Positions 42,837 to 50,045 of a DNA stretch of 64,000 nucleotides are shown one piece after another. The DNA lies in contig JAEPLN010000002.1 in NCBI GenBank assembly GCA_017644425.1, forward strand, positions 41,268 to 105,267, given 5' to 3'. A model generated the notes under the pieces. The model saw only the letters and a list, made by a program, of their open reading frames with translations. It had not been told where the DNA came from and did no database searches. The stretch's first letter is position 1; every line of letters begins with the position of its first letter. This stretch comes from Prochlorococcus marinus CUG1433. Lineage in GTDB: Bacteria; Cyanobacteriota; Cyanobacteriia; PCC-6307; Cyanobiaceae. The translations under genes were made by a program, and so were the position numbers.

Positions 42837-43121
42837 TTAAATTTTTTTTGAAAATGTCTCTTTGATAATTATCATTAAAGTAACATTTGCTTGATAATTT
42901 TTATTAGGAGGATTTATTTGATTTTTAATTAAAAAAATAAAAGTATATATCAACGGTAAAAGTAATGATGACGCTGCAACTAAAGCAATTATCTGGTTCA
43001 ACCTAATAAATGGTTTTTTTACAAGATCCTCTCCGCACAAGCCACAAATTAAATTTCCTTTTGAGGATTGTCTTTGAAATTGATATTTAGGATTGCAATA
43101 TGGGCAATAATATCGAACCAT
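42837..43121 (-). CDS. zinc-ribbon protein with C-terminal TM helix
   Basis: 94 aa. CPYC-x17-CGLC followed by one hydrophobic helix. Confidence 0.5.
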   Translation of the reverse strand: MVRYYCPYCNPKYQFQRQSSKGNLICGLCGEDLVKKPFIRLNQIIALVAASSLLLPLIYTFIFLIKNQINPPNKNYQANVTLMIIIKETFSKKI

Positions 43122-43866: not shown

Positions 43867-44925
43867 TCAAAAAGAATTAGTACGAACTTTAAATTTCCAA
43901 ACATTTACTACACCTTTTGCGTTAACTGCAGCTAGTGCACAATCATCAGGTCTCCACGAAAGTGCACCCACTAAATCGCCTGCGAATGCAGCCCCAACTG
44001 GGTCACCATTACCGTCTTTTTTTAGAAAACTTGCGACAACAGAACCATCTCTAGATCCGGAAGCTACAAGCATGCCTTTATTTGAAAAGGCTAGGCTAGA
44101 AATAGGTTCGGTATGGTGCCATAGCTCTCCCGGCATAGTCCCCTCGGGACCGTCACCTATAAAGCTCCACACTGTAATTCTTTCACTGCCACTAGTTGCC
44201 AGTAATTTTCCACTATCGTCAAAAGAAAGGTGACTGGGTTTTCCTGGGTATCCTGTCATTTCAGCATCCATTCCGGTTGATCTTCTCCAAAAATGAACTG
44301 AATTGTCTTGACTCCCGCAAGCGACTATATCACCATCAGGACTTAATTCCATTGAGACTAATGATCCTTGCCACTCGAGCTTTTGATTCGTTTTATTATT
44401 TACTATGTCAAAGAATGTTACTCTCCCGTAGCAGGCTGTAGCTAGCTCATTATTATTTGACCATTTTATTGCACTCACTGTGCTTGGATGATCATCTGAT
44501 ACCCATTTTTCTTCCCCAATTTCATTAAAAACATATACTTTTTTTGAAGAAGCTGCTGCAAGAAATAAGCCATCATTTGACCACTTAAGATGCTCTACCC
44601 AAGCCTTGCCAAGATCGAGAGTTTTAATTACTTTACCTTCGTGACAATTATATATTTGAATATTTCCATCTTGACCGGAAGTTGCAAAAATCTCTCCTTC
44701 TGGATGAATGGACATTGCTAATAGACCAGCAGAGTGTGTATTTTCTTTTTTCCAAATAATTTTCCCAGTATCTCCTTCAAAGGCAAAAATACCTCCTGCT
44801 ACATCCCCAACAATGAATAACTTTCCTTTATTAGCCCAACCACAAACTATGGCATAATCATTAACTTCAGCTGTCCATCCCTCGTGGAACATGCCTCTTG
44901 GGCTAAATGATTCTATATCAGGCAT
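43867..44925 (-). CDS. WD40 beta-propeller protein
   Basis: 352 aa with about 7 WD-like blades (e.g. SGQDGNIQIYN, GSQDNSVHFW, GSRDGSVVAS). The start overlaps the upstream COG0523 stop by 13 nt. Confidence 0.85.
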   Translation of the reverse strand: MPDIESFSPRGMFHEGWTAEVNDYAIVCGWANKGKLFIVGDVAGGIFAFEGDTGKIIWKKENTHSAGLLAMSIHPEGEIFATSGQDGNIQIYNCHEGKVIKTLDLGKAWVEHLKWSNDGLFLAAASSKKVYVFNEIGEEKWVSDDHPSTVSAIKWSNNNELATACYGRVTFFDIVNNKTNQKLEWQGSLVSMELSPDGDIVACGSQDNSVHFWRRSTGMDAEMTGYPGKPSHLSFDDSGKLLATSGSERITVWSFIGDGPEGTMPGELWHHTEPISSLAFSNKGMLVASGSRDGSVVASFLKKDGNGDPVGAAFAGDLVGALSWRPDDCALAAVNAKGVVNVWKFKVRTNSF

Positions 44926-46268
44926 TTTTCAAAACCTTCTTTCATCTCTTTCTCGTCCAAATTTCTACCTATAAAAACAAGTTGGTTTCTACGAGGTTCG
45001 TTACCCCATTCCTTATCAGGTTGCGCTGTAAATAACATATGTACCCCTTGGAAAACTATTCTCTGTGGGTTGCCTGAGTAGCTAATGAAGCCTTTAGTTC
45101 TAAATATATCCACCCCTTTTTCAGAAAGAAGTCTGCCCAACCAAGTATTAAGTTTTTCCGGATCAACATCTCCAAATCGTTCAATTGCAATGGACGTTAC
45201 TTCATCATCATGCTCGTGCTCGGCTTGCCAGAATCTTTCAATATTAAATGGGATCTCTTTTGAATTATTGTCTTCACTTTTAATGATTTTCATATTGAAT
45301 TCTTCAGCAGTGTGCTGTGTATATAAACCTATCTTTGATCCCTTTTCGATATCTAATATGAATGATTTATTTCCTTTATCCTCCAATTTAAGGTTTATAT
45401 GTTCTCCAAATGGAATGATATTACCAGGTTCTAAGCTTTTAGCTTTTTCTGCATAAAGTCTTACGCAGGATTCAGCACCATCTTTAAGTTCTTCTTCACT
45501 CTCACTTTGATTAGCGAAAGCTACTAATGACATTTCTGGATCGGGACCTTCTTCTAGCATTAATTCATATTTACCTGCAGCAAGGTCGTAAACACCTGTC
45601 CATTCAAAAGGATATTCTGGTTCAAGAAATGTTGGTCTGCGTTTAAGGATTTGATCTAGATCAAATGCACTTAGATTTAGGACTGTTTCGATTGGTACTT
45701 GGGCATTCTCGGCTCTAATGATTCGAGTCATTCGGTTCATATCTCTCAATCTAGATTCAAGAGTATCTAGTGCATCATCAGAGACTAAATCAGTTTTATT
45801 AAGGACAAGAACATCTGCAAACGCAACTTGTTCTGAACTTTCATCACTTCTTCCTAGCTGCTGATCAATATGAGCAGCATCAACTAAAGTTACAATTCCA
45901 TCAAGAGTAAATTCAGAACTAATTTCTTCATCCATGAAAAATGTCTGCGCGACTGGCCCAGGATCTGCTAATCCGGTCGTTTCTACTAAAACATAGTCAA
46001 ACTTATCTCTTCTTTTCATAAGGTTGCCAAGGACTCTTATCAAATCACCGCGAACAGTACAACAAATGCACCCGTTTGACATCTCAAAAACTTCTTCATC
46101 GGCATTAATTACGAGCCCTTGATCTATCCCTACTTCACCGTATTCATTCTCAATTACGGCTATTCTTTTCCCGTGCTCTTCACTTAGTATTCTATTAAGT
46201 AAAGTAGTTTTCCCTGAACCTAGAAATCCAGTGAGAATAGTAACTGGAACTTTATCTTTGATGCTCAT
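44913..46268 (-). CDS. COG0523 (CobW/G3E) metallochaperone GTPase with an inserted domain
   Basis: 451 aa. P-loop GFLGSGKTT, metal motif GCICC, NKTD, His/acidic linker AEHEHDDE, CobW_C-like C-terminus. A ~125-aa insert lies at aa ~220-348. Confidence 0.9.
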   Translation of the reverse strand: MSIKDKVPVTILTGFLGSGKTTLLNRILSEEHGKRIAVIENEYGEVGIDQGLVINADEEVFEMSNGCICCTVRGDLIRVLGNLMKRRDKFDYVLVETTGLADPGPVAQTFFMDEEISSEFTLDGIVTLVDAAHIDQQLGRSDESSEQVAFADVLVLNKTDLVSDDALDTLESRLRDMNRMTRIIRAENAQVPIETVLNLSAFDLDQILKRRPTFLEPEYPFEWTGVYDLAAGKYELMLEEGPDPEMSLVAFANQSESEEELKDGAESCVRLYAEKAKSLEPGNIIPFGEHINLKLEDKGNKSFILDIEKGSKIGLYTQHTAEEFNMKIIKSEDNNSKEIPFNIERFWQAEHEHDDEVTSIAIERFGDVDPEKLNTWLGRLLSEKGVDIFRTKGFISYSGNPQRIVFQGVHMLFTAQPDKEWGNEPRRNQLVFIGRNLDEKEMKEGFEKCLI

Positions 46269-46318
46269 TTAATGATTTTTACCAAATAAACAATAGTTTA
46301 ATAATAGTAATAATAAGA

Positions 46319-46337
46319 AATGAAAACCGTTTTTATT
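46319..46337. promoter_or_regulatory. candidate Zur/Fur-family operator upstream of the COG0523-WD40 genes
   Basis: AATGAAAACCGTTTTTATT is an imperfect palindrome with 15/19 identity to the box at 47909-47927. It lies in the 76-nt spacer between the znuA stop and the COG0523 start. Confidence 0.4.
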
Positions 46338-46344
46338 AGAAAAA

Positions 46345-47886
46345 TTAATCTGAAAGTTTGTACCATTCAGACTCAAGATTGGATCCAGATTCTTTATCAC
46401 AGCTTCCACCTAATGAATCAACAATTGTGCAAGTGTTGTGAACGGCTACTGAAACCGTATTACCATCCATCATCAATCCATCAACGAATATTTGATTAGA
46501 AGCTAAAGGAACTGAACTTTGTCTACTTAAGTTCCTTAATAACTTAGATGCTGGAATTTGTTCAGGAAATATCGCCTGAACTTTCTCTTCATCTAACATT
46601 TTTAAAGTAGAACTTATGTTGTCTGGCCTTAAGCTTGAGGAGTCTCCAAGAAAGTCAAGTAAACTAATGGTTTCAAAACCAAATGCATCCCCGTAGTATT
46701 CCATTGCTTTGTGTTTAGAGACAATTACTCTGTTTTCCTCAGGAATAGTGCTTACTTGTTCGACGATCCAACTATCTAAGCCTTCTAAGAGAGAATCAGT
46801 TTTTTCGAATCTTTCATTAATTAGTTTTCTGTCACCTCTATTAAAAACTGAAATATCTTTCTTTAAACTTTTGCTTATAAGATCTCCCATTTTTATGATG
46901 TTATGTGGATCATGCCATACATGTGGATCTAGACCTCCATGGTCATGATGGTGATGCCCCTCTCCTTCGTCTGGAACTTGTGCTATTGGTTCTACATCAC
47001 TATTTGAAACGTCTTTAAAAAAGTGTTGAGTTGCTTCAAACTCAAAAGGCATGTGTTCAGTAAAAAATATATATTCACCATCTTCTTTGATATCCACGTT
47101 AAAAACAGTACTTTCTTTTCTTTGATCAAAGTTAAGAACAAAAGCTTTATTACTTGCTATCAAAGTTCCATCATTTTTTCTGCTTATTGAGTCTTTAGAT
47201 CCTAATAATTCTTTGGCTAAATCTTCAGACCTTTCTATGTCATTAGATTTGAGAATCACCATCTTCATTGCAGGATCTGCATATTCGCCATCGACTTTTT
47301 CAAATGACCATTTGTATGAACCCTTAGAAAGCTGGAATTTACCTGCCCATTCGAAAGCACCCTCAGCATGATCATCATGTCCACCATGGTCTGAATGATC
47401 ATCATGACCTCCATGATCAGAATGATCATCTACCTTAGCTGAATGTTCAGCATGATCGTCATGTCCGCCATGGTCTGAGTGGTCATCGTGACCTTCATGA
47501 TCAGAATGATCATCTACGTCTATTGCACTAACACCTACAACAATAGTATTCTTTTTACTTTCCCAATTTCTCATACTTGGAGTCATTTCTTTGCCAAGAG
47601 TGAATACTTTGTCTGCGCTATTTAGTAATTGAGCTTGTCTTGGATTGATCTTTAAGTCATGAACATCCTGTTTTCTATCTACTAAGCATGTAACTTCGTC
47701 AGATGGTAACGCAATAGATTTAACTAAATCACAAACTAGTGGTTCTACTGCTACGTATGACTTCCCTTTAGCCATTACATCCTGCCCAAAACCAGAAAAT
47801 ATAATCGTTCCAGCGATTACGGAATTTTTAATAATTGACTTACTTGAACATGTTTTATTTGATAAAAGTCTTTTAAAAGTTGACAT
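46345..47886 (-). CDS. znuA: ZnuA-type (cluster A-I) periplasmic zinc-binding protein with a greatly expanded His-rich loop
   Basis: 513 aa. Signal peptide, metal-ligand contexts QDVHDL and GLDPHVWHDP, a ZnuA-like C-terminal lobe, and a ~195-aa insertion at the loop position. Confidence 0.85.
   Translation of the reverse strand: MSTFKRLLSNKTCSSKSIIKNSVIAGTIIFSGFGQDVMAKGKSYVAVEPLVCDLVKSIALPSDEVTCLVDRKQDVHDLKINPRQAQLLNSADKVFTLGKEMTPSMRNWESKKNTIVVGVSAIDVDDHSDHEGHDDHSDHGGHDDHAEHSAKVDDHSDHGGHDDHSDHGGHDDHAEGAFEWAGKFQLSKGSYKWSFEKVDGEYADPAMKMVILKSNDIERSEDLAKELLGSKDSISRKNDGTLIASNKAFVLNFDQRKESTVFNVDIKEDGEYIFFTEHMPFEFEATQHFFKDVSNSDVEPIAQVPDEGEGHHHHDHGGLDPHVWHDPHNIIKMGDLISKSLKKDISVFNRGDRKLINERFEKTDSLLEGLDSWIVEQVSTIPEENRVIVSKHKAMEYYGDAFGFETISLLDFLGDSSSLRPDNISSTLKMLDEEKVQAIFPEQIPASKLLRNLSRQSSVPLASNQIFVDGLMMDGNTVSVAVHNTCTIVDSLGGSCDKESGSNLESEWYKLSD
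47362..47517 (-). repeat. in-frame tandem duplication (84-nt period) encoding the DH-rich stretch of ZnuA
   Basis: Units 47363-47433 and 47447-47517 differ at 6 of 71 positions. They encode VDDHSDH(E/G)GHDDHSDHGGHDDHAE twice. Confidence 0.9.
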
Positions 47887-47908: not shown

Positions 47909-47927
47909 AATGATAATCATTTTCATT
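47909..47927. promoter_or_regulatory. candidate Zur box in the divergent znuA / znuC promoter region
   Basis: AATGATAATCATTTTCATT is a Fur-family-type AT-rich inverted repeat, 22 nt upstream of the znuA start and 97 nt upstream of the znuC start. An extra ATGAAAAT half-site lies at 47957-47964. Confidence 0.6.
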
Positions 47928-48023: not shown

Positions 48024-48794
48024 ATGGCTACTTTAGTCGCTGAAAATTTAACATTTGCATACACAGAAAAAAGTAAGCCAGCTTTAAATAAGGTATCGGT
48101 TGAGATTAAACCTGGAACTCTAACAGCGCTAGTAGGCCCAAATGGTGCCGGTAAATCCACTCTTTTGAGGATATTGCAAGGACAAAATACTCCAGATAAA
48201 GGCGAAATAAAAATTGATGGTGAAAATTTATATAGATCTAGAGCTCTAGTGGCACTTATGCCTCAAAGAAGTTCTATGAATTGGAAGTTTCCCATTACAG
48301 TTGAAAAATTGGTATCTCTTGGTCAAATAAAGTATTCAAAATCAAGAAGTAATAACCCCTTTCAAATAAAGGCTCTTCTAGAATATCCTAATTCTTGGAT
48401 TAATAAATGTTGTGAATTAGAAGCGACAATGCAAAGAGTAGGAATTGCTAATTTGGCTAATAGAAGACTTGATTCTCTTTCAGGAGGACAGCAACAAAGA
48501 GCTCTATTAGCAAAAACTCTTATGTCCCCTGCAAAAATATTTCTTCTGGATGAACCTTGTGCGGCATTGGATCCCCCCGCAAAAGAGGACTTCCTGAAAA
48601 TTGTTCGTCAACTCGCAGATGCGGGACTTTCTTTGCTAGTAAGTAGCCATGATTGGGGCGAGTCTCTAAATAACTACGATCAAGTAATCGTTCTTGATAA
48701 AAGTGTTTTAGCAGTTGGTAGTCCTGATCAAATAAAAGATAAATTAGATGCGATAAACATAAGCTCTATAAAGGAAAATAATTTCTGTGATTAG
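48024..48794 (+). CDS. znuC: zinc/manganese-type ABC transporter ATP-binding protein
   Basis: 256 aa. Walker A GPNGAGKST, signature LSGGQQQR, Walker B IFLLDEP. Confidence 0.85.
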   Translation: MATLVAENLTFAYTEKSKPALNKVSVEIKPGTLTALVGPNGAGKSTLLRILQGQNTPDKGEIKIDGENLYRSRALVALMPQRSSMNWKFPITVEKLVSLGQIKYSKSRSNNPFQIKALLEYPNSWINKCCELEATMQRVGIANLANRRLDSLSGGQQQRALLAKTLMSPAKIFLLDEPCAALDPPAKEDFLKIVRQLADAGLSLLVSSHDWGESLNNYDQVIVLDKSVLAVGSPDQIKDKLDAINISSIKENNFCD

Positions 48795-48807: not shown

Positions 48808-49242
48808 TTAATTTTGAGCTTGATAACAGTTTTGGCAAAGGCCGAAATATTCGAGTGTATGAAACAAAAGTTGAAACTTTCTTGGATTTTTTTTAGGGGC
48901 ATGAATATCTTTAACAGGACAACCTTCCATTTTCGACGTCTCTCCGCATTGAACGCAGGTCAAATGATGAATGTCTCTATCTACGGGAGTGTAAAGAACC
49001 TCTCCTGTTGGGAGATGTCTAGAACGAATTAAACCATGCTTTATAAGAACTTGAAGATTCCTGTAAACAGTGGTCAGTCCCATAGCTTTTCCGCTTTCAA
49101 TCAATTGTCTATGCAACTCTTGACCGCTCAGTTCATCCTCGCATTTATTAAGTTCTTCAAGAAGTTGCTCTTGTCTTTTGGTAATGTCAGACTTAGTTAC
49201 CATTGTTTCCAAAATCTTTTTTTGCCTCGTATTTTTGATCAT
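48808..49242 (-). CDS. zur: Fur-family metalloregulator, Zur by context
   Basis: 144 aa. Winged helix (TTVYRNLQVL), HHLTCVQCG and CQNC Cys pairs. The start may instead be Met14 (49203). Confidence 0.85.
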   Translation of the reverse strand: MIKNTRQKKILETMVTKSDITKRQEQLLEELNKCEDELSGQELHRQLIESGKAMGLTTVYRNLQVLIKHGLIRSRHLPTGEVLYTPVDRDIHHLTCVQCGETSKMEGCPVKDIHAPKKNPRKFQLLFHTLEYFGLCQNCYQAQN

Positions 49243-49259: not shown

Positions 49260-50045
49260 ATGTCTTTTATTAATAACAACTGGTGGTTGGTTCCATTAAT
49301 AATAACTATATTTTCTGGGATCTTATGCCCAGCGATGGGAACTGTATTAATCACCCATAAGAGATTATTACAAGTTAATTTAATCTCTCATTGCGTGTTG
49401 CCTGGACTTGCTCTCGCATTAGCGCTTGGAATTCACCCTTCAATTGGTGGTGTTATAAGTGGTCTTTTAGGCTCGGTAATTGCGGAAAGTTTAACCAATA
49501 GAAAAAGTGAAAATTATGAAGCAGTTATGAATACTATTCTTGCTGGAATGCTTGGGTTTGGAGTCCTTATTATCCCTCTACTCGGAATAAGGATTGATTT
49601 GGAGGCAGTATTATTTGGCGATTTATTGACAGCAAATTTTGGAGATTTACTTAGAACAATAATTGCTTTTTTAGTATTTATACTTTTAATGACTTTTGGA
49701 TATGAAAAGGTTGTTTATGTGGGATTGGATCCGGAAGGTGCATCCGCGAGTGGTATAAACGTTTCTTTATTAAATCTTGCTTTGAGTTTTACAACTGCAT
49801 TAGTAATTGTTAGTTCAATGTCAGCAGTGGGAGTAATTCTTGTAATTGCTCTTCTTTCTACGCCAACTTTGTTAGGGCTAAATAAGGCTCATAGTTTAAG
49901 AATTGCAATGATGAGGTCTTCATTTTTTGGATTATGTATCTCACTTCTTGGATTCATTCTCTCTATTGTCTTTAATCTTTCGCCTGGACCTGCAATTAGC
50001 GTTATTTGTGTTGCGTCCCTTTTAATTCCTAAGCTTCGCAAATAA
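49260..50045 (+). CDS. znuB: zinc/manganese-type ABC transporter permease
   Basis: 261 aa with about 8 TM helices. ABC-3 family pattern. Confidence 0.85.
   Translation: MSFINNNWWLVPLIITIFSGILCPAMGTVLITHKRLLQVNLISHCVLPGLALALALGIHPSIGGVISGLLGSVIAESLTNRKSENYEAVMNTILAGMLGFGVLIIPLLGIRIDLEAVLFGDLLTANFGDLLRTIIAFLVFILLMTFGYEKVVYVGLDPEGASASGINVSLLNLALSFTTALVIVSSMSAVGVILVIALLSTPTLLGLNKAHSLRIAMMRSSFFGLCISLLGFILSIVFNLSPGPAISVICVASLLIPKLRK

Follow-up and report, generated by a model that had tools for sequence, protein, structure and literature searches.

A homologous domain inserted in ZnuA and a COG0523 GTPase of a Prochlorococcus zinc-uptake cluster, and its recurrence in metal-handling proteins

Introduction

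The canonical His-rich loop of the binding protein ZnuA is short and disordered, and the linkers of COG0523 chaperones often bear His-rich metal-binding stretches. In ZnuA of Synechocystis and E. coli the loop, rich in His, Asp and Glu, lies between the first and second histidines of the primary metal site, and the roles proposed for it are to increase the zinc concentration locally or to regulate that site (PMC8786288). We describe here the ZnuA and COG0523 proteins encoded next to each other in a stretch of 64,000 nucleotides from Prochlorococcus marinus CUG1433 (contig JAEPLN010000002.1, positions 41,268 to 105,267; referred to as the window), both of which carry a copy of the same inserted domain. 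The ZnuA loop of the window is like its counterparts in composition and in its place in the fold, but it differs in holding a confidently predicted beta-sandwich of about 125 residues (predicted local distance difference test score, pLDDT, 96) between low-complexity arms.

The COG0523 copy has been noticed before. In the passages of Barnett et al. 2012 (PMC3323870) that we draw on throughout, the 'branch 1a' COG0523 proteins of marine picocyanobacteria are described as having an insert of about 150 residues, not His-rich and predicted to contain four to six strands and one or two helices, which is possibly a domain of its own and has no InterPro match; the branch 1a genes adjoin znuABC/zur and a WD40 gene whose role is left unexplained. 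This is the same insert as that of the COG0523 protein in the window. Those passages do not mention a ZnuA copy, homology of the inserts or a wider family, and our full-text literature searches found no description of a shared domain. What is already known is the COG0523 insert; what is new is the ZnuA copy, the homology of the two inserts and the wider family.

There are several accessory modules with which the domain can be compared. ZinT/YodA fused to AdcA, free ZinT, Zcp/DUF4198, ZrgA/DUF2796, PA4063 and AztD are Zur-regulated zinc accessories found beside cluster A-I binding proteins (PMC12663993), and ZinT/YodA, Zcp, ZrgA, PA4063 and AztD resemble the window domain in the role that we propose for it. 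However, Pfam, NCBIfam and PDB searches found no relation in sequence or fold between the domain and ZinT/YodA, DUF4198, DUF2796 or PA4063-like proteins, with the presence of each of these in the PDB assumed. The domain also departs from the ZinT-type accessories in that its likely ligand set is a mixture of oxygen and nitrogen donors and not three histidines, and in that it is used in the cytoplasm and in eukaryotes as well. A further parallel is the extracellular domain of ZIP4 (ZIP4-ECD), an N-terminal ectodomain of LIV-1 ZIP transporters that is needed for optimal zinc transport (PMC4915132). Algal ZIPs carry one or two copies of the window-type domain at the same N-terminal place, but the two are unrelated in fold and family, and PDB fold and profile searches with the window domain gave no significant match. 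The domain is an accessory metal module by kind, but it constitutes a new family with wide reach.

Two inserts with one homologous domain

ZnuA is encoded at 46345..47886 on the minus strand and is a cluster A-I metal-binding protein of an ATP-binding cassette (ABC) importer, as judged from its open reading frame (ORF) and from Pfam, in which PF01297 matches on either side of the insert, in two stretches (E=1.5e-41; 143 bits, cut-off 29). Alignment to PsaA places the ligands of the primary site at H75 (DVHD), H322 (DPHVW), the His of VSKHKAMEYY and the Asp of FVDGL, and the third of these is a His of the zinc type (SKHKAMEYY) where PsaA has a Mn-type Glu (SEGAFKYF). The adjacent COG0523 gene (44913..46268, minus strand) encodes a G3E GTPase of the metallochaperone family with a cobW domain (PF02492, E=2.2e-61), a CobW_C domain (PF07683, E=4.1e-25) and the motif GCICC at residues 66–70. 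A first-pass annotation of the window, made from the sequence alone, had drawn attention to the unusual lengths of the two proteins (513 and 451 residues), and its coordinates, lengths and quoted peptides agree with the ORFs and their translations.

The same annotation had located the ZnuA excess at the His-rich loop, and the PsaA alignment confirms this. The excess comprises residues 125–317 (193 residues), between VGVSAIDV (residues 117–124) and GLDPHVWHDP (residues 318–327), and falls between H75 and H322, the first two histidines of the primary site, which is the canonical position of the loop. It has three parts. Asp/His-rich repeats (residues 125–175, approximately) form an arm N-terminal to the domain, and the DNA that encodes them is an 84-nt tandem repeat (47363..47517, minus strand; 1.8 copies with 91% matches by Tandem Repeats Finder, TRF); the folded segment, domain copy 1, spans residues 176–300 (46987..47361, minus strand); and the His cluster GHHHHDHGG (residues 310–318; 46933..46959, minus strand) follows on its C-terminal side and leads into the DPH motif with the second primary-site ligand. 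ZnuA is 513 residues long in the window and in strain MIT 9107, 504 in AG-355-N18 and 503 in a further representative (P0079), and we suspect that these length differences reflect expansion or contraction of the repeats in the Asp/His arm.

In the COG0523 protein the excess sits between the cobW domain, which ends at residue 184, and CobW_C, which starts at residue 358 (Pfam). The insert had been assigned to residues 220–348 or thereabouts, and its location between the GTPase domain and the acidic/His cluster AEHEHDDE (45201..45224, minus strand, at the entry to CobW_C) holds. Its C-terminal limit does not, as the core ends at about residue 329 and residues 330–348 are a linker into the conserved AEHEHDDE, outside the core domain. 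Domain copy 2 accordingly spans residues 219–329 (45282..45614, minus strand). Both copies are supported by homology and by AlphaFold2 (AF2) models.

That the two inserts contain one homologous module, as the first-pass annotation had proposed, is supported by BLASTP, a shuffle test, HHalign and the same order of predicted structural elements. BLASTP aligns the ZnuA and COG0523 inserts over 113 columns at 25% identity (E=2e-6). The Smith-Waterman score of the pair is 78, against 30.2–30.4 ± 5.2–5.7 for shuffled sequences (z=8.3–9.2); no score as high came from 2000 shuffles, and the Gumbel p is about 1e-5. When the full-length ZnuA and COG0523 proteins are compared, the best local alignment lands on these same two segments. 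HHalign of separate ortholog profiles for each insert gives 97.9% probability and E=5.3e-13 over 103 columns, and the landmark motifs picked out in the first-pass annotation are the most conserved columns of the domain family. An identity of only 25% could be taken to mean that the resemblance is due to chance or composition, or, alternatively, the inserts could have arisen by a recent duplication within the genome. We regard both of these as refuted and give them practically no credence. Chance is countered by the shuffle z of 8–9 and the profile-profile E of 5e-13. Recent local duplication is countered by the observation that the ZnuA copy is 54–56% identical to ZnuA inserts of unrelated-looking bacteria and 24% identical to that of its COG0523 neighbour, so that it is far closer to the former, and by the occurrence of the same subtypes in other phyla. 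The two copies are members of two old subfamilies of one family that extends over three domains of life, and are not a locus-specific pair.

Predicted fold and conserved residues

AlphaFold2 predicts the ZnuA insert with a pLDDT of 96.1 and a predicted template modelling score (pTM) of 0.90 from a 40-sequence alignment, and the COG0523 insert with a pLDDT of 85.5 and a pTM of 0.77 from a 15-sequence alignment. Both models begin with three strands and a helix of 13–15 residues; a further four or five strands follow, and then a helix of one turn placed directly after the conserved His. From these models we are confident in a predicted beta-sandwich of about 115–125 residues with the order b1-b2-b3-helix-b4-b5-b6-b7-short helix. 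An AlphaFold comparison had been proposed as a check for a common fold, and the secondary-structure states of the two models agree at 81% of aligned positions, as against 38% (maximum 57%) for shifted controls.

The suggestion that the module belongs to no named family is also borne out, in that neither insert has a match at E<=1 in Pfam-A (2025 copy) or NCBIfam, and the same is true of a free-standing representative of the family (P0043). Foldseek searches of the PDB with both AF2 models found no match below E=0.01; the weak top matches are generic jelly-roll or beta-sandwich proteins (TNF/C1q, virus capsids, haemagglutinin head) with template modelling (TM) scores of 0.47 or less. One of the Foldseek matches is to the copper-binding CorA of Methylomicrobium, which we rejected as evidence (E=0.11, TM 0.36). 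Searches of PDB sequences with the domain by phmmer and by profile gave nothing below E=0.1. An NCBIfam ZrgA match on ZnuA (27.9 bits against a cut-off of 185; residues 86–179, ending at the start of the domain) is attributed to the DH repeats.

Conservation was scored over 158 full-length domain copies. Four polar positions stand out: E4 (96%; E179 in ZnuA, E222 in COG0523), D25 (88%; D204 and D243), H101 (98%; H278 and H319) and E105 (96%; E282 and E323). W5 (96%), G7 (94%), M28 (88%) and F106 (96%) are also conserved, together with L75 and F85, and these hydrophobic and glycine positions look like core residues. In the window, copy 1 has E179, W180, G182, D204, M207, H278, P280, E282, F283 and H288, followed by DVEP, and copy 2 has E222, W223, G225, D243, M246, H319, E323 and F324. 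The short helix of the AF2 models starts between H101 and E105, and the i/i+4 spacing of these two residues would put their side chains on one face.

The family divides into two subtypes. A second His, H111 (H288 of ZnuA), is present in 84–92% of the ZnuA and ZIP copies and is absent from the COG0523 copies. The 'YADP + H111' subtype is found in ZnuA, ZIP, CbiM and secreted repeat proteins, and the 'GPDP' subtype in COG0523 proteins, at the C-terminus of a cation diffusion facilitator (CDF), in CbtA, in some stand-alone proteins and in haloarchaeal lipoproteins. The window holds one copy of each, YADP in the periplasmic ZnuA and GPDP in the cytoplasmic COG0523 protein. The flanks are rich in His, which accounts for 10% of the 25 residues upstream and 8.5% of the 45 residues downstream of the domain, versus 3.4% elsewhere in the same proteins. 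In most architectures a His cluster lies C-terminal to the domain, and AEHEHDDE of the COG0523 protein aligns with these clusters.

Breadth of the family

A word-indexed homolog search with single inserts gave only fragments shorter than about 260 residues, and it was replaced by an exhaustive HMMER search of 1.84 billion representative proteins with a profile built from both insert types (A3). This yielded 663 representative clusters at E<=1e-3, of which 270 reach E<=1e-10. Most matches are metagenomic, and architectures were counted by Pfam scanning of 138 of the best 150 clusters. No Pfam family covers the domain itself in these 138 representatives. ZnuA is the most frequent partner (26 of the 138), with the domain in the loop, and it is followed by Zip (22), with the domain at the N-terminus, CobW_C (17) and cobW (13). 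HlyD_D23, found in CusB-type membrane-fusion proteins, occurs twice with the domain N-terminal to it, and CbtA, CbiM and Cation_efflux plus ZT_dimer (the CDF architecture) occur once each. The last is an exporter of the soil Firmicute Paenibacillus solisilvae (P0134, WP_379192094.1), in which a GPDP-type domain at residues 336–447 follows the cytoplasmic C-terminal dimerisation domain; because of this protein the family is neither strictly marine nor restricted to importers. Among the 138, all well-scoring fusion partners (E well below 1e-5) belong to families of metal transport or trafficking, and this guilt by association strongly backs the metal-handling role suggested in the first-pass annotation.

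One or two copies occur in ZnuA loops and one or two at ZIP N-termini, as counted with a hidden Markov model of the domain, and the library search found up to three matched stretches in some proteins. The ZIP-type proteins and several secreted tandem-repeat proteins derive from metatranscriptome contigs of transcript length, and one ZIP cluster (P0091) has further members from a source labelled 'merc', which we take to be a marine eukaryote catalogue. Because of these two observations the ZIP-type carriers are most likely eukaryotic plankton, and the secreted tandem-repeat carriers are most likely so too.

A tblastn search of plasmids showed that haloarchaea (Natrinema, Haloarcula, Halorubrum and others) carry the domain in metal ABC binding proteins and also as stand-alone lipoproteins of the twin-arginine translocation (Tat) type, with the form [HEHEHE]-domain-[HxHGH...]; these stand-alone forms are named 'hypothetical protein' in RefSeq. 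On plasmid pNVE414 of Natrinema versiforme a stand-alone [HEHEHE]-domain-[HSTHGHSDDGH] lipoprotein (L084:4893-5444) comes directly after ureC-ureG-ureD-ureE-ureF, and this neighbourhood hints at nickel, and not zinc, as the metal that part of the family serves. Domain-bearing COG0523 proteins in metagenome-assembled genomes of Gammaproteobacteria, Sericytochromatia and Chloroflexi are annotated just as 'GTP-binding protein' or 'hypothetical'. A tblastn search of phage records with the ZnuA insert gave no match. Among the apparently free-standing forms, three (P0238, P0245 and P0243) were rejected, as adjacent cobW fragments (and also CobW_C in P0238) suggest split or frameshifted COG0523 genes. 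Those retained are P0043, P0118 and the haloarchaeal lipoproteins; P0043 is encoded close to the end of a contig, among genes that show no link to metal.

Proposed function

We hold it as nearly certain that the domain represents a homologous family dedicated to metal-handling proteins, and we think it probable that it would itself bind metal and hand it off, or buffer it. The hosts range from a periplasmic binding protein, a ZIP ectodomain outside the cell and a periplasmic efflux adaptor to the cytoplasmic tail of a CDF, a cytoplasmic GTPase and Co/Ni uptake components, and we favour capture and hand-off because a metal ion is the sole thing common to all of these hosts and compartments. It is also favoured because of the conserved Glu/Asp/His-x3-Glu set, the His-rich arms, and the placement of the domain where the hosts carry metal-binding low-complexity loops. 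In the mechanism that we propose, the domain would bind a divalent metal ion, here Zn2+, and the candidate ligands are the Glu at the start of strand 1, the Asp before strand 3, and the H-x3-E pair that spans the end of strand 7 and the short helix after it; the extracytoplasmic subtype has one additional candidate His. Ions would be collected by the floppy His/Asp arms on both sides, and the folded site would hold one and then hand it on to the primary site beside it. The recipient would be the H75/H322/His/Asp pocket in ZnuA, and in COG0523 it may be the GCxCC/C-terminal domain site or a client protein. Because the two genes share an operon preceded by a Zur-box-like site, zinc scarcity would lead to the production of both copies.

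Several considerations weigh against this proposal. The conserved Glu and Asp may have a structural role, a site formed by Glu, Asp, His and Glu would be harder and probably of lower affinity than the classic three-His zinc sites, and the COG0523 subtype is without the second His. The His-rich arms alone might bind the metal, and the fusion of the domain to importers, exporters and chaperones across compartments also fits a generic regulatory or oligomerisation role. An unlikely alternative is that the domain lacks a metal site and acts as a structural scaffold or as an interaction module; it would hold the His/Asp arms apart and present them, or would serve in oligomerisation or docking, for instance of ZnuA with ZnuB or of COG0523 with the WD40 protein or with a client. 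The weak Foldseek matches are to jelly-roll proteins, and many of these form oligomers, but the matches are not significant (E>0.01, TM<=0.47). The domain-bearing COG0523 genes are repeatedly followed by a WD40 gene, but Barnett et al. 2012 (PMC3323870), in the passages drawn on here, report the WD40 association also for AM1_3031, a COG0523 relative without the insert. The His clusters that flank most copies could by themselves explain metal binding; however, the Glu, Asp, His and Glu are kept at 88–98% across periplasmic, extracellular and cytoplasmic contexts in which the partners differ, and constant polar residues with differing partners argue against a partner-specific interface.

A different, and in our judgement quite improbable, role is that of a metal-sensing regulatory module, in which metal bound to the domain would switch the host on or off, for instance by obstructing the ZnuA site or gating ZIP or CDF transport at sufficient zinc, instead of feeding the primary site. 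The His-rich loop of ZnuA, which holds the domain, has been suggested to be regulatory (Wei et al. 2007, as cited in PMC8786288), and the presence of the domain on importers and exporters fits a sensor as well as a feeder. Against this, the tandem copies in algal ZIP ectodomains and ZnuA loops and the free-standing lipoproteins look more like capacity for capture or buffering. Taking metal capture and hand-off as the working proposal, a broader and more tentative possibility is that the domain is an undescribed Zn (or Zn/Co/Ni) capture module distributed across the domains of life, serving as an extra metal-binding station on varied transporters and chaperones. Its carriers here are Prochlorococcus, marine heterotrophic bacteria (by the look of their sequences), haloarchaea, and, most likely, eukaryotic phytoplankton with tandem copies on ZIP ectodomains, and seawater poor in metals is the habitat of many of them, but not of all.

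Zinc is scarce in the surface ocean, and its acquisition and allocation by picocyanobacteria and eukaryotic phytoplankton is an open question in the field (PMC9337993, PMC9010474). The recurrence of the domain on ZnuA, ZIP, COG0523, CDF, CbtA/CbiM and CusB-type proteins offers one concrete and testable element common to these systems. A capture role would give a function to the long-noted branch 1a insert of COG0523, would explain why the picocyanobacterial ZnuA is about 200 residues longer than the textbook protein, and would supply a family for the N-terminal ectodomains of many algal ZIPs. If the broader reading is correct, the two copies in the operon would constitute a periplasm-to-cytoplasm relay of like sites, and the domain would be a sequence marker of high-affinity trace-metal acquisition in ocean meta-omics. 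The domain is small, confidently predicted and soluble, which should make it easy to express for metal-binding and structural work, and a profile in the databases would improve the annotation of several hundred clusters that are now 'hypothetical' or named by host family alone.

The zinc-uptake cluster and its proposed control

The region at 44–50 kb of the window is a divergent zinc-uptake cluster of the Zur type, znuA-COG0523-WD40 / znuC-zur-znuB, as in Prochlorococcus of the high-light II (HLII) clade. In addition to znuA and the COG0523 gene it contains, on the minus strand, a gene for a 352-residue WD40 beta-propeller (43867..44925; ORF and Pfam) and one for a Fur-family regulator that is a putative Zur (48808..49242; Pfam FUR, E=4.3e-19), and, on the plus strand, the genes for the ABC ATPase ZnuC (48024..48794; Pfam ABC_tran) and the ABC-3 permease ZnuB (49260..50045; Pfam ABC-3, E=1.3e-42). 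The start of the WD40 gene and the stop of the COG0523 gene overlap by 13 nt (44913-44925). The two are probably co-transcribed, and the overlap suggests translational coupling.

The divergent intergenic region between znuA and znuC contains the Zur-box-like palindrome TGATAATCATTTTCA at 47911..47925, which lies 25 nt upstream of znuA and is the sole match in the window with one mismatch to the cyanobacterial 7-1-7 Zur-box consensus TGATAATNATTATCA. Matches with three or fewer mismatches show no overall enrichment in the window. A Zur box at the same place in Prochlorococcus is described by Barnett et al. 2012 (PMC3323870, same passages). No gene of Synechococcus WH8102 is induced more strongly at low Zn or in a zur mutant than the equivalent znuA; the genes downstream of it are co-induced, and the system is Zur-repressed (PMC9337993). 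We infer that the znuA-COG0523-WD40 operon of this strain would likewise be under Zur control.

A scan of a genome collection with a tighter alignment (A6) retained 80 loci, all from near-identical HLII Prochlorococcus, and 75 of them have both domain copies. The closest genomes, with 97–99% protein identity over the ZnuA insert, are all HLII Prochlorococcus (MIT 9107, SS51, MIT 9314 and many single-cell genomes), and the gene lengths in MIT 9107 are identical at 513, 451 and 352 residues. One of the five loci in which the COG0523 copy is missing, in AG-355-N18 (L049, 5506-10500), has znuA with its insert, but other ORFs lie downstream in place of the COG0523-WD40 pair, and the other four are truncated contigs. 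For low-light Prochlorococcus and Synechococcus, the distribution is taken from the branch 1a description in the passages of Barnett et al. and from high-GC COG0523 fragments.

About 750 nt downstream of the WD40 gene a 94-residue ORF (42837-43121, minus strand) encodes a hydrophobic segment and, at the N-terminus, a zinc-ribbon-like motif of the form CxxC...CxxC. Two Zur-box-like matches with two mismatches each (42863-42877 and 42892-42906) lie in its 3' part, but in this AT-rich region matches of that kind are expected by chance. In another contig (L086:4647-6852) a gene call with Zip and cobW Pfam matches is directly upstream of the domain and CobW_C, and the calls look frameshifted. The WD40 protein of the window has no obvious signal peptide. 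The pairing of a domain-bearing COG0523 gene with a WD40 gene recurs in a metagenomic contig (L087:2860-7551) with the gene order CbiM - ABC ATPase - cobW - domain - WD40, so that the pair also occurs beside a Co/Ni-type energy-coupling factor (ECF) transporter.

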